Shown one piece after another: positions 1 through 18,232 of a DNA stretch of 21,605 bases. How positions within the stretch are numbered: position 1 is the first letter of the stretch; each line of letters begins with the position of its first letter. This stretch comes from a virus (lineage: Duplodnaviria > Heunggongvirae > Uroviricota > Caudoviricetes): IMG/VR virus record IMGVR_UViG_2681813318_000014; one strand, 5' to 3'. Made by a program: the position numbers and the translations under genes. A model generated the notes under the pieces. That model was given only the letters and a program-made list of their open reading frames with translations, did no database searches and was not told the origin of the DNA.

Positions 1-186
1 TTAGTTTGTTTTACCATCATCAATCGTAATTGTGATTTCATATTTGAAAAGCTTAATGCTGAAATTGAAGCGTGTACTTTTGGCGATAATCATTTTTAAA
101 AGCTGATACACCAGAAGCACCAGAAACACAAAGCAACCTAAGCTTGCGAATCTGTGAGATTCAGCAATTGTTTCAAGAAAGCCCAT
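1..186 (-). CDS. small predicted membrane protein (61 aa), divergent from the RHH regulator gene
   Basis: ATG at 186 with AAGGGG RBS about 6 nt upstream; hydrophobic stretch LGCFVFLVLLVYQLL; stop at 1-3; own consensus-like promoter (237-265, minus strand). Confidence 0.35.
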   Translation of the reverse strand: MGFLETIAESHRFASLGCFVFLVLLVYQLLKMIIAKSTRFNFSIKLFKYEITITIDDGKTN

Positions 187-236: not shown

Positions 237-287
237 ATAATATCATGTAAATGAGATGTTGACAATATGTTAAATAAATGTTAAGAT
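237..287. promoter_or_regulatory. divergent face-to-face sigma70 promoters with overlapping -35 boxes
   Basis: Plus strand: TTGACA 259-264, 17-bp spacer, TG-n-TAAGAT 279-287 (extended -10), driving the 323 gene. Minus strand: TTGTCA (complement of 260-265), 17-bp spacer, TATTAT (complement of 237-242), driving the 1..186 gene. Confidence 0.45.
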
Positions 288-1136: not shown

Positions 1137-1460
1137 ATGAATAATCACCCAATGCAAATTTTCGTTGATAACGACACCGCTATGATGATTCAGGCTTTCA
1201 CTGATGTAGGTGTTAGCATTGACTTTGATAAGTTGTTAGAGTTAATGGCTGATAATGCGGAAAGCATCTCTGACTTTATTCACTCGGTGGAGTTTAACGA
1301 GCCTCGAATGATGCTACCAATTAAAGACAGCAACATGAAAAGATTGGTTATCGAGCAAACGAACAAATACAGCGTTAGCCCTGAAAAATATCTCAAGGCA
1401 GCTATAGCAATTTTGTACAGCGATAATATTCTGGTGACGGATTCGAAGGTGGTGCATTAA
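1137..1460 (+). CDS. hypothetical protein (107 aa)
   Basis: ATG 1137 with GAGGAA RBS 7 nt upstream; no recognisable motif. Confidence 0.5.
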   Translation: MNNHPMQIFVDNDTAMMIQAFTDVGVSIDFDKLLELMADNAESISDFIHSVEFNEPRMMLPIKDSNMKRLVIEQTNKYSVSPEKYLKAAIAILYSDNILVTDSKVVH

Positions 1461-1537
1461 TGGGTTTAATAATTGCTTGGACGCTGTTAGGGTTATTTGT
1501 TGGTTGCTGGATGGGTAACACAGTAAATAAGAATTGA
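1460..1537 (+). CDS. possible 25-aa hydrophobic peptide (MGLIIAWTLLGLFVGCWMGNTVNKN)
   Basis: ATG overlaps the upstream TAA (TAATG); AAGGTGG-like RBS 7 nt upstream; single transmembrane-like segment; below the ORF-track size cutoff. Confidence 0.3.
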   Translation: MGLIIAWTLLGLFVGCWMGNTVNKN

Positions 1538-1561
1538 TGTTACCAATCTGTTAAAAAGCTG

Positions 1562-1590
1562 TTGACAAATAACCTTAAACATGACATAAT
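1562..1590 (+). promoter_or_regulatory. near-consensus sigma70 promoter (TTGACA-17-CATAAT with TG extension)
   Basis: TTGACA 1562-1567, 17-bp spacer, TGaCATAAT 1582-1590; followed by AGAGAG/CTCTCT hairpin at 1610-1626 and about 430 nt without an ORF before the 2023 gene. Confidence 0.45.
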
Positions 1591-1760
1591 TTTAATTATA
1601 GAGAGAATTGCTCTCTTATTTCTTTCAACAATTCCATCTACATCTAGGGATAGTTATTCTGAAAGGTGCAATGCTTTTCGCTACATGGCCTATTTAGCCC
1701 ACTAGATAGGCTATATATCAAAAAGTGCTTAATCATTCATTATTGAACCCTTACAGCTTT

Positions 1761-1788
1761 GCCCTAATCATGAGTTAGGGCTTTCTTT
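1761..1788 (+). terminator. intrinsic-terminator-like hairpin
   Basis: GCCCTAA (1761-1767), 7-nt loop, TTAGGGC (1775-1781), then TTTCTTT. Confidence 0.4.
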
Positions 1789-1857
1789 AAGAGTTTTTAA
1801 ACAGAGCTTTTAAAGAAAGTTTTTCCTGAAACTTCGTTAACGTTAAAGCAAACCTTC

Positions 1858-1901
1858 AAAGCCCTTCACAGATAAGGATGAACCTATGTTTAGGGCTTTT
1901 T
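1858..1901 (+). terminator. second terminator-like hairpin in the leader
   Basis: AAGCCCT (1858-1864) pairs with AGGGCTT (1891-1897), followed by a T6 run; the loop is long (about 26 nt), so the structure may be more complex. Confidence 0.3.
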
Positions 1902-2022
1902 TCAGCTTTTAAAAAGCATACTTGGCAAACCGCCTTTTAAGCCTCTTCTAAGTTTAGATAGGCTGTCAGGTGTGCTTTTTAAAAACTGAAACATAAATTA
2001 TCTTAGAAGAGGAAAAATAATA

Positions 2023-2727
2023 ATGTCTATCCGTGATGAACATGAAATGATTATCGAAAACAAACCAAGTGCACTTGATATTCACGAATTAAGTTTGCGT
2101 GAATCTTTTGATAGAGCTTGGCGGGAATCACACGAAGTAAATAAAGGTCCATATATTCCACCAGAACCACTCGAGATTCCAAGAGTTGAAATTGATTTTT
2201 CTATGAACGAACGGTGTGAACTTGATTTGAAGTTGAAGCTACAACGCCGATATTTCCAAGCTATTAAAGACTCTCAAGAAGCAATGAGAAGTGTTTACGA
2301 GAAAATTCAGTCCAAGCTTGAAGACGAAATTGACGAAATGGCTATTTTGATGGAGCTTCAAACCAATTCTTATGCTTATTTCTCTCGACTAGACCGTGAC
2401 GGTTGGGGGTATGACCCTGTAGAGATTGGTAAAGTGATTGCAGATTTACCAGAAGGTCAAAGAGTTGTTCGTACAGAAAGAGCCATTAGAGCGCCACATC
2501 GACTGTCTCTAATTGTTGCTGATAAATCACAAGCTGAGCTTGAAGAAATTGCCAAAGAGAAACTGATGAAAGCAAGAGAAAATGAGATTAATTTGCTGAA
2601 ATCAAGACTGGCTAAGCTGATTAGTGACCATCAAGCGCTGGCTAAGGAGTACCGTCAAGAGTTGGCACAGATTATCAGCTTCAATGATTTTCTGAGTGTT
2701 CCACGAGAATTTAGCAAGGCTGTTTAA
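2023..2727 (+). CDS. hypothetical protein, charged/helical (234 aa)
   Basis: ATG 2023 with GAGGA RBS; composition rich in E/K/R/L suggests coiled coil; no recognised motif. Confidence 0.55.
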   Translation: MSIRDEHEMIIENKPSALDIHELSLRESFDRAWRESHEVNKGPYIPPEPLEIPRVEIDFSMNERCELDLKLKLQRRYFQAIKDSQEAMRSVYEKIQSKLEDEIDEMAILMELQTNSYAYFSRLDRDGWGYDPVEIGKVIADLPEGQRVVRTERAIRAPHRLSLIVADKSQAELEEIAKEKLMKARENEINLLKSRLAKLISDHQALAKEYRQELAQIISFNDFLSVPREFSKAV

Positions 2728-2749
2728 TTATGCATATGTGAGGTGATGA

Positions 2750-2965
2750 ATGATTGATTTAACAGAACGCTATGAAACTATTCGGTCTGTTTGTGAAAAC
2801 TTAAAGTTACAAACTAAACCAGCCTTAAGAATTAAAAGCAAACATCAAATTATCACCTCACGCAAACCAAAAACACGCAAGATTCCAAAGTGGTGTATCG
2901 ACCGTATCCCTTCCGATGCTCAAATTATAGGTGAAACGGAACTACATTATCTTGTCAGGCATTAA
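2750..2965 (+). CDS. small basic hypothetical protein (71 aa)
   Basis: ATG 2750 with GAGGTG RBS; K/R-rich. Confidence 0.45.
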   Translation: MIDLTERYETIRSVCENLKLQTKPALRIKSKHQIITSRKPKTRKIPKWCIDRIPSDAQIIGETELHYLVRH

Positions 2966-3062
2966 AAAAGAATGGTTGGGTGTATGAGATAGGTTCTATC
3001 GAATCTATAACACGGGGAGAGATTATCGAGTGATATCGGTAGTTTCTCCCTTTTTTGTATGT

Positions 3063-3147: not shown

Positions 3148-5316
3148 ATGGCACAATTTAAAGTTGATGATTTTCTGATTGAGTTAAGTTTTAACTCTCA
3201 GAAAGTTTTAAAAGGCTTGGAAAAAGCCGAGAAACAAACGATGCAGGTAGCATCACGAATTGAGAAGCGATTGAATAAAGCTTTTAAAGTTAACCCTACG
3301 CCTTTAAATGATTCTCTCAAGGTCATGGAAAGAAATGTCGATAAAACTGTTTCCAAGATTGAGCAGCGTCTTAAAAACACTAGAGTGTTTAAGATTAAAA
3401 CGGAAATTGAGGATACTTTAAAGCCACTTAGACAACCAAGACAGCCACGAATTAGCGGCAACAGAGCAATCACAGCAGCTTACTCAGCGAATATGAGCAA
3501 GCTAAAAGGCTTTGACCCTATTTTGCAGAAATACATCAAATCTCAGTTTTACGGGCTATCTGCTAAAGCCGGGTCAATGGATAATTCAAAATTCAATGAG
3601 AAGCTGGCTCAGCTAAATGCTTCAGTCAGAGAAGCAATTGCTAAAGCTAAAGGTCATACATCCACCAGCATTAATAATACAAGCGACGCATTTAATAATC
3701 TTGCAAGCAATGCAATTAAGTTATCTGGTGCATTTTACTCTGTGATGGGTGCTCTTAACGCTTACAAGGCCATTATGAATGCAGGTCTTAAACGAGATTC
3801 CGCACAGAGAGCCGCTAAGTTTGTACTTGGTGATAAAGCATCTGAGGCTGAAACATTTATCAGGGGACTGGCTGACAAGACAGGTCTTAATATCTCTGAA
3901 GGGCTATCAAGCTACGCTAAGTTTGCAGCAGGTGCTCAGGGTTCTATGTCACAGGAACAGACACAGGAGCTATTTGGTAATGCAACGGCTATGAGTCGCT
4001 TAATGGGGCTTAGTAATGATGAGCTAAACGGCATTTTGAAAGCTTTTGAGCAGATGGCTTCTAAGGGCAAGATTCAGGCTGAAGAATTACGTGGGCAGTT
4101 AGGTGACCGTATGGCTGGTGCATTTAAGCTATTCGCTGAAGCACTGGGTATGACTGCTACAGAGCTTGATAAAGCGATGAAAGACGGGAAGATTTTAAGT
4201 AGTGATACTCTCCCTAAAGTCGCTAAACAGATGGGCTTGATGATTGATAAAGCGGGTGGCTGGGCTGAAGTCGCTAAGAGCACCCAGACAGCTTTAGGTA
4301 AGTTAGCAAACAACTGGGATGATACGATGGTGAAAATCTTCTCAGGTTCACAGGATGAGCTAAACGGCTTCTTATCCAGCCTGAGTAACCTGCTTAGTGA
4401 AATGGGGATGAGTTCTTCTATCGCTGGTGATGCTATCGGTGGGCTTATCGACATGCTTAAAGCTGGTGTAGATGATATTCGCGTATTCAATAACACCATT
4501 GAAGGCTGGATTTTACAGGTTAAAAAGTTCTATTACAGCCTTGATGACACTAAACGAAAACTACTTGATGAAGTCGGTGATGGTTTTATCAATTTTGTCA
4601 AAGGTCTTGCTATAGCGTTATCTGCAAAGACGCTATTCAGTGCCACTACAGGGGTTATGAACCTGACAAGAGCAATCACAACGTTAGGTACAAGAGCTAA
4701 TCAGGTGGCTGGTCAGGTAGCTACTGGTAAAGGTGGTGAAAAACTGAAAGGTGTAGCTGGTGGTGTAGGTAGTGCTCTTGCAATTGGTTATGCTGATGAC
4801 GGTTATGAAACAGCGTTAGCATTAGCTTCAATGATTCCACAAATCAGAGGTGTCACCCTTGGTTTATATGCATTGAAGAAAGCACTGGATTTTATGAATC
4901 AGGAAGTAGTCAAAAACGCTAACATGCATCCATCTGGGGTAGGTGTGGGTAGTGACTTTAATCCTGTGTATTCTGGTGACCCTAATAAACCGAATATGAT
5001 TAATGAAGGGTGGATTAAAATTTTTAGTTCAATGGGTGAATTGTTTAACAATGCCACAATGAATATTGCAAGATTCAATCATCCAGAATTAAACAACATT
5101 AAGCAAGAAGCATCACTAACCAGCGCAGATATTCAAAGTCTGAGGGATGAAATCTCTGCTTTAAGTAAGCGTATTCAGGAGCCTGTGAAAGTTTCACTTG
5201 GTGGTGAAGTTGCCATTAAACCAGATGAAACATCGTTTATGACCTTTAGCGGTAATATTTACGACCAATACGCAGAAGCTACGCTATTAAGTTCATCATT
5301 TCCAGAAGATGATTGA
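3148..5316 (+). CDS. tape-measure-domain protein (phage tail length tape measure-like), 722 aa
   Basis: Segment LKAFEQMASKGKIQAEELRGQLGDRMAGAFKLFAEALGMTATELDKAMKDGKILSSDTLP matches the conserved tape-measure motif as recalled from memory; central Gly/Ala-rich hydrophobic segments; GAGGTG RBS upstream. Confidence 0.7.
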   Translation: MAQFKVDDFLIELSFNSQKVLKGLEKAEKQTMQVASRIEKRLNKAFKVNPTPLNDSLKVMERNVDKTVSKIEQRLKNTRVFKIKTEIEDTLKPLRQPRQPRISGNRAITAAYSANMSKLKGFDPILQKYIKSQFYGLSAKAGSMDNSKFNEKLAQLNASVREAIAKAKGHTSTSINNTSDAFNNLASNAIKLSGAFYSVMGALNAYKAIMNAGLKRDSAQRAAKFVLGDKASEAETFIRGLADKTGLNISEGLSSYAKFAAGAQGSMSQEQTQELFGNATAMSRLMGLSNDELNGILKAFEQMASKGKIQAEELRGQLGDRMAGAFKLFAEALGMTATELDKAMKDGKILSSDTLPKVAKQMGLMIDKAGGWAEVAKSTQTALGKLANNWDDTMVKIFSGSQDELNGFLSSLSNLLSEMGMSSSIAGDAIGGLIDMLKAGVDDIRVFNNTIEGWILQVKKFYYSLDDTKRKLLDEVGDGFINFVKGLAIALSAKTLFSATTGVMNLTRAITTLGTRANQVAGQVATGKGGEKLKGVAGGVGSALAIGYADDGYETALALASMIPQIRGVTLGLYALKKALDFMNQEVVKNANMHPSGVGVGSDFNPVYSGDPNKPNMINEGWIKIFSSMGELFNNATMNIARFNHPELNNIKQEASLTSADIQSLRDEISALSKRIQEPVKVSLGGEVAIKPDETSFMTFSGNIYDQYAEATLLSSSFPEDD

Positions 5317-5392: not shown

Positions 5393-5472
5393 CAGAGAAA
5401 ACACTTATATATCAAAGGCTTGGTTAAAAATGATTAAAATACACTAAGCCTTTGAAATCAAAGGAGAATTTA

Positions 5473-6261
5473 ATGATTTTTAGCAATCAAATCCGCTACA
5501 GTGGCAAAGATGGCATCTATTTCCACTTAAGAGATAATGTAGATGCCTTCTTAACTTTATCAGCTACTGAAAACATGGAATTTGACAGCCCTATGCAGGT
5601 CACTACACAAAACATGCAATCAGGGCAAACCGTCACAGATAATGTGCAAAGAGCACCCAGAACAATCACTATTAGTGGTGTCGTTGTAGTTGGCTATGAA
5701 GGGAGCTTATTATTAACTCGTCAGGGCCAGTTAGTAGAAAACTTCATCGACACTCTTGAAAGCTGGAGAGACCAGAAACAAATTATTTCAGTGATTTGTA
5801 AAGATGGTATCAAGATTGATGACTCAATTATTACCAACTTTAAAGCCTCTAAAGATGTTACTATCTCTAACGGTCTTCGTATCCAGCTAACTTTTCAGGA
5901 AATTAACTTCAAAGCCGTTGTGGGTCAAACTGATATTTCAGCAGCAACTGGAAAGACCGCTACTACAAATGATGGTGGTGTGACCAGTAAGAAGAATGCA
6001 GGTAACGTGACCACTGAACGCAATAACGCGCCTATGCTATCGTGCAAAGAGTTAATGAGTATTAACGATGTATCCGGTTACGCTCCAGCTATCAGAAATG
6101 ATATTCTCGATGCTCAGATTAAATGTAATAAGGCTTGGAAGCTGGATTATTCAGACTTAACAGAAGCTGAAAAAACCAACGTCACCAATGCTAACAGTAA
6201 CGCTGGTCGAGTAGCTTCAAAGCTTAAAAAGTACTCAGTGAACCCTCACAAAAAATACTAA
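5473..6261 (+). CDS. hypothetical beta-rich protein (262 aa), possibly a distal tail component
   Basis: ATG 5473 with AAGGAG 6 nt upstream (the track start at 5452 is a TTG with no RBS); position directly after a tape-measure gene; functional call is by position only. Confidence 0.5.
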
Positions 6262-7832: not shown

Positions 7833-8234
7833 TTAAACGTGTCTAATAAAAATCACCCGATTAACGCCGCGCTGATGTAAACCGCGATTAAGCGTTTGTT
7901 CCTCTTCCCCTTTGGCGAAAAACTGTGGATGGCGGACTTCCACACCATAATTAAATTCGCCAGGGAGAGAATCGAGAAAATGCCAAAGCGCAGGCAGCTC
8001 CCGTGGGCCGAATGTGGCAGGCAGTTGCAGCCAGTATTGCCCAATGCGCGGAGCCAACGGTGACATGCGGGTCAAAAATTCAGTCACTAAATCATCGCAA
8101 TGTCGTAATGCTGCCTGATGCGAAATGGTCGCCGGAAACTTAAAACAGAAGCGGAAGTCATCTGTGGTCTGTTCACGCCAGCGCAGGACAACCTCGGGTT
8201 TCGGCAGGGCGTAAAGCGTGGTGTTGCCCTCCAC
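7833..8234 (-). pseudogene. yecE: fragment of a chromosomal DUF72-family gene (consistent with yecE), missing both ends
   Basis: GC-richer composition than both flanks; sequence CVEGNTTLYALPKPEVVLRWREQTTDDFRFCFKFPATISH fits the conserved DUF72 N-proximal pattern as recalled; no native start (frame open into the integrase 3' end); only about 133 codons versus roughly 270 expected. Confidence 0.5.
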
Positions 8235-8260: not shown

Positions 8261-9574
8261 TTAACTTACTGATTTTAATAAGCCTCTGGTGTCACTTTGG
8301 TGACTATGGGGCATCATTGGGACATAATCTGTCAGCTTCTGATTCAGCATTGCGATCTGTTCTGCATTGCTGTCAGTCATCCATGCTCCGTATACATTGA
8401 ATACCATCTGGGCACTTGCATGGCCCATCTGGCTGGCAATGAAGCTTGGGTTTGCTCCGGCAGATAATGACCAGCACGCATAAGTGTGTCGTGACTGGTA
8501 TGCCTTTCGATGCCTGATCCCTGCACGCTTAATGGCTGTTTCCCATGAGTCACCTACAGAATCGACTTTGTAGACAAAACCTACCTGTTCGCTTTTTCTA
8601 ACCACTTGAGGGTTAAACACGAAAGTACATTCATGGTTCACTGAACGTCCATATTCACGTAGTTGCACCTTGATGTTGTACTGCTTACCCAGTCTTGTCA
8701 TTTCAGCCTGATTTTTCAGGACACTGATAGCGGGCTGGATAAGGTGCACAACCCTGTTTGTGCTTGCTTCAGTTTTCGGTAGAGTGAACTCACCAAGTTT
8801 CGTATAATTGCGCCTGATGGTAATTGTTCCTGCCTTCAGATCGATATCTTCCCAGGCCAGGGAGACCAGTTCACCGTGACGCATTCCTGTGTACACAGCC
8901 AATGACCACAGGTTTTTCGTCTGCTGATGTCGGCAAGCATCTATCAGGCGAATAAATTCGTCACGAGTTAGCGGATCTGGCTCTGCCCTGGCTCTTTTAA
9001 GAGGCTTAATTCCCTGGAAGGGATTTGCTTCTAAGTAACCGTGATCTGCAGCAAACTGAAACATTCCAGCGATTGTCGTCATGTAATAATTTACAGTAAC
9101 GACGCTCCGTCCTTTTGCTGCTGCTTTGTTTTTCGTTGAATTCTGATACCCGGTAAGCAAATCTTTCCTGATATACAGCAATTCCTCTTTGGTTACCGAT
9201 GACACCAGTCTACTGCCTCCAATTTTCGGAACCATCGTTCTTGCAACGGATTCATAGCGATTGAATGCATTTGCAGAGATTTCCATTCGTTTCAGATCCA
9301 GCCACTTTTCTTCAAGTTCCTTCACCGTAATTTCTTTTTTACTTACCCCAAAAGCCTGAAGGTTGGGGGAGTCAGGGAACTGTGCAGCATAATCAAAGCT
9401 TCCTGTGCGGATGGCAAAACATACTGATGTCCGCAGTTCCCCGGCGATCTTCCTGTTCTTGGCAGTGTCAGGGACACCAAGATTTTCCCTGACACGTTTA
9501 CCGTTAAAATTAAACCAGATGCGTAATGTGCCGCCGTGGTTTTCGACGCCTGTTGGATATTTGACTTTATCCAT
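8261..9574 (-). CDS. int: phage tyrosine integrase (437 aa)
   Basis: C-terminal catalytic-region residues consistent with a tyrosine recombinase (AYQSRHTYA..., ...VYGAWM); N-terminal arm-type domain; GGAGGT RBS; immediately downstream of an excisionase-like gene on the same strand. Confidence 0.85.
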   Translation of the reverse strand: MDKVKYPTGVENHGGTLRIWFNFNGKRVRENLGVPDTAKNRKIAGELRTSVCFAIRTGSFDYAAQFPDSPNLQAFGVSKKEITVKELEEKWLDLKRMEISANAFNRYESVARTMVPKIGGSRLVSSVTKEELLYIRKDLLTGYQNSTKNKAAAKGRSVVTVNYYMTTIAGMFQFAADHGYLEANPFQGIKPLKRARAEPDPLTRDEFIRLIDACRHQQTKNLWSLAVYTGMRHGELVSLAWEDIDLKAGTITIRRNYTKLGEFTLPKTEASTNRVVHLIQPAISVLKNQAEMTRLGKQYNIKVQLREYGRSVNHECTFVFNPQVVRKSEQVGFVYKVDSVGDSWETAIKRAGIRHRKAYQSRHTYACWSLSAGANPSFIASQMGHASAQMVFNVYGAWMTDSNAEQIAMLNQKLTDYVPMMPHSHQSDTRGLLKSVS

Positions 9575-17847: not shown

Positions 17848-18232
17848 TCACTCAACATCAATAACGGGGAGCTGTTTCGCATAAAACGGCTCCGAAACAT
17901 CCAAGAACAGTTCTAAAGATATCAGCAGCTATATGATCATTTCAAGACCAAATATTGATTCTGCAATTTCGGGACGTTACACTGTCTCTGCACCTTATAA
18001 AGCGGGTGCCGGGGGTCGCAGCCCGGAATTGTCAACGGCGATATATGACGCGCCAGCGTCTTTTTTATCGTCCGCGCTCACGCACGCCAGAATTATGGTG
18101 GGCTGGGCAGGGGAGCCGAAAGGCTCGCCGGTCTCCGTTGACGCCGGTACTGCGAACCCTGTTCAGTCTGCCACCAGTGAGTTTCGCAGCTCCGGTGGTG
18201 GAAGTTTTCCACAGTCAACGGAGGCTGCCATC

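Follow-up and report, generated by a model that had tools for sequence, protein, structure and literature searches.

The locus and its leader

The stretch of DNA analysed here (the window) comprises 21,605 nt of the viral record IMGVR_UViG_2681813318_000014, and its beginning, from position 1 to about 7800, is a segment of an AT-rich island with about 38% G+C. In this segment, a promoter (P2) is followed by a long region without genes, then by two orphan open reading frames (ORFs) of 234 and 71 amino acids (aa), and then by the genes of a tape-measure protein and a Dit-like baseplate protein, which both are homologous to tail proteins of Felixounavirus (Felix O1-like virulent myovirus). The region between P2 and the 234-aa ORF is a conserved, highly folded, untranslated leader RNA of the plus strand. 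The chances are about even that this leader is a cis-acting gate on the tail-gene operon that functions at more than one level, by termination and by a translational lock, and that also yields a short RNA. The elements of the leader, together with its promoter and one terminator further downstream, are the following:

1538-1565, plus strand: three TGTTRM hexamers (at 1538, 1549 and 1560) with an exact 11-bp spacing, the third of which overlaps the -35 hexamer
1562-1590, plus strand: promoter P2
1600-1616, plus strand: hairpin H1, found by scan and folding, 2-3 nt from the predicted 5' end
1661-1679, plus strand: core hairpin with a 7-bp stem and the loop and closing sequence GTGCAATGC
1685-1714, plus strand: hairpin H2 of 13 bp, whose 3' arm contains the first copy of the 10-mer TAGATAGGCT
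1715-1760, plus strand: stretch E, CATCTCAAAAAGT...TTCATTCATTATTGAATCCTTTACAG, conserved and mostly unpaired according to the alignments
1761-1788, plus strand: putative intrinsic terminator T1, a stem-loop (1761-1781) with an 8-bp stem and a TTTCTTT tail
1782-1818, plus strand: hairpin H4 of 16 bp, A/U-rich, whose 5' arm is the U-tract of T1
1858-1902, plus strand: putative terminator T2, GCCCT (1861-1865) pairing with AGGGC (1892-1896), an inner 3-bp stem, and a T6 run at 1897-1902
1900-1991, plus strand: hairpin H7 of 27 bp with one bulge, directly 3' of T2
1942-1952, plus strand: anti-Shine-Dalgarno (anti-SD) sequence CCTCTTCTAAG of 11 nt in the apical loop of H7
2002-2012, plus strand: ribosome-binding region CTTAGAAGAGG, with the ATG of the 234-aa ORF at 2023-2025
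3014-3057, plus strand: putative terminator T3, a hairpin (3014-3051) with a 16-bp stem followed by T6, -25.6 kcal/mol

P2 is of the sigma-70 type, with TTGACA, a 17-nt spacer and the extended -10 element TGaCATAAT, and with a score of 11/12 it is the top-scoring promoter within the first 6 kb of the window. The pattern TTGACA-N14-TG-NN-ATAAT, with at most one mismatch allowed, has a single match in the 21.6-kb window versus 0.04 expected, and the consensus promoter that the initial annotation had proposed at 1562-1590 is thereby confirmed. Transcription is predicted to start at about 1597-1598. Also the claim of a long ORF-free stretch after the promoter holds: in 1591-2022, the sole ORF of at least 40 aa is a mechanical TTG frame (1562-1705) that begins inside the -35 hexamer and is destroyed by indels in the homologues.

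Conservation and folding of the leader

The leader folds with -133.8 kcal/mol (z = -7.8), which is equalled by none of 100 shuffled sequences. For the comparison, 30 distinct homologues were aligned from the -35 hexamer to the ATG, with 328-486 nt each, and all counts out of 30 given here refer to this set. Each of them has P2, H1, the core hairpin, H2, stretch E, the T2 hairpin, H7 and the ribosome-binding site, and the TTGACAAA sequence of P2 does not vary. When the structure is mapped on the alignment, 94.4% of the cells are standard pairs, compared with 40-62% in a control in which the 3' partners were slid by 1-3 columns. As many as 22 pairs are changed on both sides, and none of 500 shuffles reached either the covariation score or this number of double changes; as the homologues are related, the shuffle control overstates the significance and the slid control is the fairer one. 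RNAalifold, with no structure supplied, recovers H1, the core hairpin, T2 and H7. Conservation of the hairpins across homologues, which the initial annotation had suggested to examine, is thus found together with compensatory changes, and the elements, their conservation and their covariation are direct observations.

The same holds for the strand. In the stems, plus-strand G.U (G.T) pairs by far outnumber A.C mismatches, namely 75:12 in H7, 60:1 in the core hairpin, 49:3 in H4 and 43:10 in H1, and this wobble asymmetry points to a plus-strand RNA rather than to a minus-strand RNA or to DNA that acts as a cruciform or in double-stranded form. The asymmetry thereby also bears on the explanation that the region is an element at the DNA level, such as a cos or pac packaging site, a replication origin or an inverted-repeat recombination site, an idea prompted by the HNH endonuclease or HTH genes that many islands have shortly upstream. 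The many inverted repeats and A/T-rich palindromes, the length of the non-coding region, and the HNH endonuclease genes that are found two genes upstream of the leader in several homologues would be in line with such an element, but apart from the wobble ratios of H7, the core hairpin and H4, it is the compensatory change of the arms with free sequence, as for an RNA, the register of the parts with promoter, U tracts and ribosome-binding site, and the lack of an iteron array that make a DNA element very improbable.

The leader belongs to no RNA family in Rfam. The Rfam search that the initial annotation had proposed, carried out with Rfam 15 at gathering scores and permissively for 1500-2100, gave nothing relevant; all permissive matches stayed well under the gathering score of their family, and the best ones were microRNA precursor models, i.e. 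generic long hairpins, with 27 bits versus a gathering score of 90. Comparison with phage and plasmid collections at the DNA level gave no match for the leader, nor for the first 6 kb of the window. The leader RNA is always found together with the operon and never apart from it. Some homologues carry inserts, either 27 nt after the promoter with an extra hairpin GGATAG-TCTT-CTATCC at the extreme 5' end (L004, L007, L045), or 34 nt with an extra hairpin GGTGAGGTATGTTCTATACCGAAC ahead of the core (L003, L009, L015, L021, L027, L038), and the leader thus appears to tolerate the insertion of modular, self-contained hairpins.

A probable, covarying lock on the ribosome-binding site

The hairpin H7, of which 97% of the cells are paired and nine pairs are changed on both sides, has the anti-SD sequence in its apical loop, and this sequence (1942-1952) is complementary to the ribosome-binding region (2002-2012) in 11 of 11 positions. 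The start codon behind it is placed at the same position of the 234-aa ORF in the homologues by RefSeq. The ribosome-binding sites of the leaders fall into the types AGAAGAGG, AGAGGTGAA, CTTAGAGGA, GAGGTGAAT and TTAGAGGA, the fifth type being that of L052 and L053, and the loop complement matches each of them. Both sides are changed in 4-6 pairs, in covariation across the five leader types. A duplex of anti-SD and Shine-Dalgarno (SD) sequence is predicted for each of 26 sequences, with energies between -13 and -22 kcal/mol and z between -1.6 and -5.8. Judged from these sequence comparisons, the covarying pairing that would sequester the SD sequence is the best-supported functional feature of the leader. 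H7 itself is possibly a substrate of RNase III.

Two further ideas on this part of the leader were dropped. A late promoter between anti-SD and SD sequence, following the logic of gene e of phage T4, is suggested by the window's CATAAATTA, which resembles such a promoter and is not conserved, and a pairing of the promoter-upstream region 1548-1561 with the 5' arm of H7 is not kept in other H7 types.

The 5' domain

Near the predicted 5' end, where the initial annotation had expected a hairpin, H1 is indeed found at 1600-1616; RNAalifold finds three pairs changed on both sides, and 97% of the cells are paired. It is likely a stabiliser of the 5' end, as the protection of RNA by 5' stem-loops is established for leaders of the ompA type. 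A boxA-like sequence TGCTCTCTTA within H1 was considered and dropped, as it is not conserved. A -10-like hexamer GAGAAT is present at 1603-1608, where most homologues read GAGCAA.

The core hairpin contains the most conserved sequence of the leader, GTGCAATGC, which is unchanged in 30 of 30 homologues. Its stem is paired in 98% of the cells, with two pairs changed on both sides and compensatory changes in L008 and L049-L053. It is separated by only 4-6 nt from H2, and the pair of hairpins lies about 60 nt from the 5' end. As H2 was misaligned by MAFFT, its pairing was checked directly: it folds as a hairpin of 10-13 bp in 26 of 26 homologues checked, and among its 18 distinct versions the stem is paired without exception at positions 1-10 and in all but one case at position 11, while positions 4, 8, 11 and 12 show changes in both arms. 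Stretch E, which follows, always adjoins the first hairpin of terminator type.

The 10-mer TAGATAGGCT that had been noted twice, at 1703-1712 and 1955-1964, is indeed present in both places, but the two copies are not a conserved motif pair. The first copy is the 3' arm of H2. The second belongs to an apical loop that varies, and only 4 of the 30 homologues have it, three of them with another sequence in place of the first copy. The idea of a functional pair like seqA/seqC of P4 was therefore rejected.

Putative terminators in and behind the leader

Both hairpins that the initial annotation had described as terminator-like were found again, T1 about 190 nt downstream of the start, with 1761-1781 followed by TTTCTTT, and T2, which had been placed at 1858-1901, with its GCCCT/AGGGC stem and T6 run. 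T1 is present in 22 of 30 homologues, and in Citrobacter-type leaders an A-U pair is changed to C-G in a compensatory manner. It forms one module with H4, both being present or absent jointly (22/30), and H4 is 96.7% paired, with U-A changed to C-G in five sequences. T2 is present in all 30 homologues; its GCCCT and AGGGC are invariant, and RNAalifold finds C-G replaced by U-A in the inner stem in eight sequences. A conserved alternative pairing that could serve as antiterminator of T1 and T2 was sought, and only trivial cross-pairing of the duplicated T1 and T2 arms was found.

The third terminator, T3, had been missed by the initial annotation, like the pairing of anti-SD and SD sequence, the phased TGTTRM repeats, the fold of the 107-aa protein upstream and the island context. 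It is located between the 71-aa ORF and the tape-measure gene; of 24 homologues examined, 22 have it, and its upper stem covaries. Like T1 and T2, it has the build of an intrinsic terminator, a G+C-rich stem-loop with a U tract directly behind it. In several homologues, the ribosome-binding site of the tape-measure gene lies within about 10 nt 3' of T3, so close that there is no room for a promoter, and in the window a promoter scan found no plus-strand promoter-like sites between 1608 and 3671. The lower stem of T3, GGGAGAG/CTCTCCC, is similar to H1 of the leader.

The terminators differ in their predicted strength, and this is relevant for the possibility of a static attenuation, in which T1, T2 and T3 would be constitutively leaky and set a fixed gradient, with much short RNA, less of the 234- and 71-aa proteins and little tape-measure and Dit-like protein, without any signal-dependent antitermination. 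Such a gradient would agree with the very strong promoter, with the moderate stability of the T1 and T2 hairpins (-11 and -14 kcal/mol, T2 having a large loop), with the eight homologues in which T1 is dispensable, with the poor U tracts of some T2 versions, and with the fact that no antiterminator gene was found. T3, on the other hand, is very strong with its 16-bp stem, -25.6 kcal/mol and U6, and it is conserved; constitutive tape-measure and Dit-like proteins have no obvious use in an uninfected cell, and the additional lock on the SD sequence favours a conditional expression. Static attenuation is therefore considered quite unlikely.

A short RNA as possible product

It can also be asked, in line with the stand-alone small RNA that the initial annotation had named as an alternative, whether the short RNA that would end at T1 or T2 is the product itself, i.e. 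a trans-acting small RNA (sRNA) whose seed would be the GUGCAAUGC loop or stretch E and whose targets would be mRNAs of the host, the island or the helper phage, which would be compatible with a cis-acting gate. A stable sRNA would have just such a strong promoter, protective 5'-terminal hairpin and intrinsic terminator with U tail, the first conserved hairpin of terminator type lies about 180-190 nt from the start in the architectures with and without T1, and the invariance of the core loop (30/30) together with the conservation of stretch E exceeds what an attenuator needs. In addition, GTGCAATGCTTTTC of the core (1666-1679) is a perfect 14-nt complement to an mRNA of the Felixounavirus HMD-P10, in an early gene on the minus strand (25498-25511 of the record, about 9499-9512 of L047). 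This match is probably due to chance: complementary 10-, 11-, 12- and 13-mers in HMD-P10 number 56, 19, 5 and 2, versus 49, 13, 3.9 and 1.4 as shuffle means, and the 14-mer is not kept in the divergent Ounavirinae phages Mordin (two mismatches) and FIfi106 (diverged) and does not track the Citrobacter-type core. As the RNA also matches no Rfam family and never occurs separately from the operon, a function primarily as sRNA is regarded as rather unlikely.

Neighbouring genes and phased repeats

The leader is flanked by the following genes:

1137-1460, plus strand: 107-aa ORF adjoining the leader upstream, predicted tandem ribbon-helix-helix (RHH) DNA binder
1460-1537, plus strand: 25-codon hydrophobic ORF MGLIIAWTLLGLFVGCWMGNTVNKN, read from the sequence
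2023-2965, plus strand: 234-aa and 71-aa ORFs, the first two genes after the leader, both orphans
3148-5316, plus strand: tape-measure gene with PHROG and Pfam matches, distal cargo of the operon
5452-6261, plus strand: Dit-like/baseplate gene with PHROG and Pfam matches, distal cargo of the operon

The 107-aa protein is an orphan, for which only 16 representative relatives were found. Its structure is predicted with moderate confidence (pLDDT 76.8) as a tandem RHH, and the best structural matches of the model are TraY, DndE, single-chain Arc and AvtR. With this predicted fold, the protein was rejected as an antiterminator or Q homologue. The 25-codon ORF starts in an overlap with the stop codon of the 107-aa ORF (TAATG) and ends 25 nt ahead of the -35 hexamer. 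The homologues likewise have a small ORF in this place, which diverges in sequence and has 74 aa in Citrobacter-type islands, and RefSeq has no annotation for it. As to the 234-aa protein, it is predicted to be mostly coiled coil, without any match to a family or solved structure, and its AlphaFold2 model is all-helical, with a confidence (pLDDT 56) that is too low for a search by fold.

Proteins of the RHH fold class typically bind phased repeats, and such repeats are present at the promoter. Triple TGTTRM hexamers with exact 11-bp spacing occur twice in the window (257-284 and 1538-1565), versus 0.00 expected, and both triplets sit at the two island promoters and nowhere else. In the homologues, the TGTT positions are kept and the intervening spacers are variable. 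The triplet is probably a protein-binding site or a signature of a phage-type promoter. The 107-aa protein may be a regulator that binds these repeats, as its predicted fold and their phased arrangement would suggest. At the first island promoter, promoter-like sites are found at 237-287 on both strands, and an unannotated hydrophobic ORF of 61 codons (1-186, minus strand) is divergent from this promoter region.

Similar signals exist in the phage. The sequence AAAAAGcTGTTGACAA upstream of P2 is like promoters of HMD-P10, which share the signature AAAAAG-TGTTGACA with the island promoters, and one HMD-P10 promoter is built like the first promoter of the island, TGTTGAC-N4-TGTTAAG-N4-TGTTAATAT (L047 1199-1226). 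In a 1.6-kb non-coding region of this phage (L048 6000-7700), there are up to 13 repeats of the TGTTAAG type per 200 bp with a spacing of about 11 bp. A single DNA-binding protein, encoded by either the island or the phage, may recognise the repeats of both.

The island and its distribution

Of 5426 complete E. coli genomes, 478 have a homologue of the leader, always flanked by the same two ORFs, and more distant copies exist in Citrobacter, in E. albertii, in another Escherichia species and in contigs from metagenomes. The island measures 11-12 kb in complete E. coli genomes (it spans 16156-27650 in L001) and is located in yecE (DUF72) or between yciI and tonB; strains Q5, A15 and UMNK88 are among its carriers. 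The order is constant, with the 107-aa protein and the tiny ORF, the leader, a protein of about 235 aa, one of about 70 aa, the tape measure, the Dit-like protein and a recombinase, and the island ends in this large serine recombinase, whose gene is on the strand opposite to the operon. The cargo includes also a small recombinase, a Dam methylase, an HTH_36 protein and small orphan ORFs, and no capsid or terminase genes were found in the island.

The two tail proteins are the only island proteins with phage homologues, and these are in Felixounavirus. The Dit-like protein is 73% identical to its HMD-P10 counterpart at the protein level and 90% at the DNA level over 518 nt. The remaining island ORFs have no counterpart in HMD-P10, and there is no copy of the leader in this phage. 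A literature search that combined Felixounavirus and Felix O1 with satellite terms or tape-measure islands found no description of the island, which looks like a new kind of satellite or defence island that is connected with Felix O1-like virulent phages.

Behind the island recombinase, a DUF72 (yecE) fragment at 7833-8234 is followed by a tyrosine integrase (8261-9574), which opens a second, more G+C-rich prophage, and there are thus two mobile elements in tandem at this locus. In the second prophage, Rfam detects the adjacent RNAs IsrK (17990-18066, 58.7 bits) and C4 antisense RNA (18091-18178, 78.8 bits).

Comparison with known systems

The PR'-6S-tR' unit of phage lambda with its Q antitermination has, as is predicted also for the leader, a strong and apparently constitutive promoter and an RNA of about 190 nt that ends at an intrinsic terminator, and like in the island, structural genes follow, with further terminators that would need processive read-through. 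A regulatory RNA can arise in this way also in Stx phages, where the StxS small RNA is generated from the terminated PR' transcript. The initial annotation had already seen a layout of promoter, terminated RNA and antitermination in the region, which is borne out in part. The order of strong promoter, long structured leader, terminators and operon is conserved with covariation in at least 30 homologues, and T3 strengthens the functional analogy to PR'-tR', which is a reasonable one, but the analogy does not extend to a Q-type gene, to the GAGAAT hexamer, which most homologues do not have, or to the eight leaders without T1. Unlike in the late unit of lambda, there is a tandem RHH protein instead of a Q gene upstream, no -10-like pause element appears to be conserved, and the leader is much longer, with extra conserved hairpins and the SD lock; and unlike a lambdoid prophage, the island is small and related to a virulent myovirus.

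In P4 immunity, the CI RNA is derived from the leader of the operon that it controls and causes premature termination (C4 in Rfam, RF01695). Like P4, the island is satellite-like, and its operon has an apparently constitutive promoter and a long leader in which transcription would end prematurely and from which a stable RNA would arise. Unlike in P4, there is no conserved complementarity of the seqA/seqB/seqC type between the short RNA and the downstream leader, and the only Rfam match to C4 is the one at 18091-18178 in the neighbouring prophage, C4 being absent from the permissive matches of 1500-2100. Functionally, the lambda PR'-6S-tR' and P4 CI systems are the closest ones, and the element is a member of neither.

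The put RNA of phage HK022 consists of two adjacent nascent stem-loops that make RNA polymerase resistant to terminators without any protein. Similarly, the core hairpin and H2 (1661-1679 and 1685-1714) are two adjacent conserved stem-loops upstream of several intrinsic terminators. Unlike in put, the two hairpins are about 60 nt away from the 5' end, and the likeness is one of hairpin layout. If a put-like antiterminator acted by itself and constitutively, there would be no point in conserving the terminators, except under a promoter that is repressed.

Leaders that sequester the SD sequence are known from rpoS, from the fold-back inhibition of IS10 and from early transcripts of the T4 lysozyme gene e, and an RNase III site is known from lambda N. 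Like in these cases, an upstream segment of the leader pairs with the ribosome-binding site and is adjoined by a near-perfect stem that RNase III could cut. The position of the anti-SD sequence in the apical loop of a 27-bp hairpin, with its pseudoknot geometry, differs from the known examples, and unlike in T4 gene e, there is no conserved internal late promoter between anti-SD and SD sequence.

Finally, promoter, structured non-coding RNA, terminator and protein gene are arranged like in ToxIN, which is also a phage-connected element, and this layout suggests that the 234-aa protein could be the toxin of a unit that resembles type III toxin-antitoxin loci. A toxin-antitoxin unit of this kind would be expected to have tandem repeats in the RNA (of about 36 nt in ToxIN) and a ToxN-like protein, but Tandem Repeats Finder detects only 2.5 copies of 13 nt inside H4, neither PADLOC nor Pfam gives a significant toxin match among the island proteins, PADLOC detecting no ToxN-like protein, and the 234-aa protein is a predicted helical coiled coil. 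The related idea of a leader-peptide attenuator comes from the invariant core, which holds an SD-like AAGGTG followed by an ATG, and thus a tiny ORF, AAAGGTGCAATG CTT TTC...; this ORF varies from 5 to 22 codons with differing stops and sequences, and its SD-like sequence and ATG are buried in the covarying core hairpin. Taken as one explanation, the toxin-antitoxin unit or leader peptide is the most improbable of those considered.

Proposed mechanism

In the proposed gate, the near-consensus P2 would fire, possibly modulated by the adjacent RHH protein via the TGTTRM repeats, and the nascent RNA would fold H1, the core hairpin and H2 and leave stretch E unpaired, with H1 shielding the RNA near its 5' end. 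Most transcripts would stop at T1 and/or T2, and the expected default product would thus be a short, stable RNA with about 190 nt if it ends at T1 and about 300 nt if it ends at T2. In RNA that is read through, H7 would fold and its loop would pair with the SD sequence, thereby blocking the translation of the 234-aa ORF. The tape-measure and Dit-like genes would need a further read-through at T3, behind which there is no recognisable promoter. By these means, the leader probably keeps the tail genes off until they are needed.

The opening of the gate would most likely require terminator-resistant transcription together with a removal of the anti-SD pairing, and as up to three terminators have to be passed, a processive mechanism that modifies the polymerase is suggested. 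As to the lock, a cut by RNase III in the H7 stem could be one route that detaches the anti-SD loop and frees the ribosome-binding site, an activation by RNase III being known for the lambda N leader and for the early mRNAs of T7. The likely trigger would be an infection by a Felix O1-like phage. From the arrangement and conservation of the elements, we infer how efficiently transcription terminates, that translation is blocked, what triggers the opening and that antitermination takes part in it.

Several points weigh against the gate. Termination, read-through and translational block are all deduced from sequence. T1 is lacking in 8 of 30 homologues, and in L009, L010, L021 and L027, which are without T1, also the T run after T2 is broken (TATTCAGTTTTT), so that termination in the leader may not be universal. 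The pairing of anti-SD and SD sequence would form a pseudoknot with H7, which a minimum-free-energy folding cannot evaluate, and the minimum-free-energy fold leaves the SD sequence unpaired. No antiterminator was identified in the island or the phage, and none is among the Pfam matches of the island proteins, and leaky terminators after a very strong promoter could by themselves fix a gradient of expression. Also, a plain attenuator does not explain the strict conservation of the core loop and stretch E, which may reflect a trans-acting function or a site for the binding of a factor.

There is also a more specific and unlikely version, in which the core hairpin, H2 and stretch E would be a new type of loading site for antitermination that becomes active only upon infection by a Felix O1-like phage, either through a phage factor or by the RNA alone. 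The polymerase would then pass T1 to T3, and the island would make its own tape-measure and Dit-like proteins and take over or sabotage the tails of the helper phage with them.

Significance of the leader and the island

The leader is a new RNA family that is not in Rfam and has enough covariation for modelling, and it possibly combines attenuation and antitermination with a translational lock, in an island family that is possibly undescribed and related to Felix O1-like phages. If the gate exists as proposed, about 9% of the complete E. coli genomes carry phage-derived tail genes behind an elaborate RNA gate, with up to three terminators and a covarying lock on the ribosome-binding site. If, in addition, the core hairpin, H2 and stretch E are a loading site for antitermination, the island would represent a satellite family not described before, with a virulent coliphage as helper and an RNA-based switch for its induction. 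Phage sensing by such elements has so far been studied mainly in the PLE-ICP1 and PICMI systems, and the island could show how an element that is related to a virulent myovirus senses its phage.

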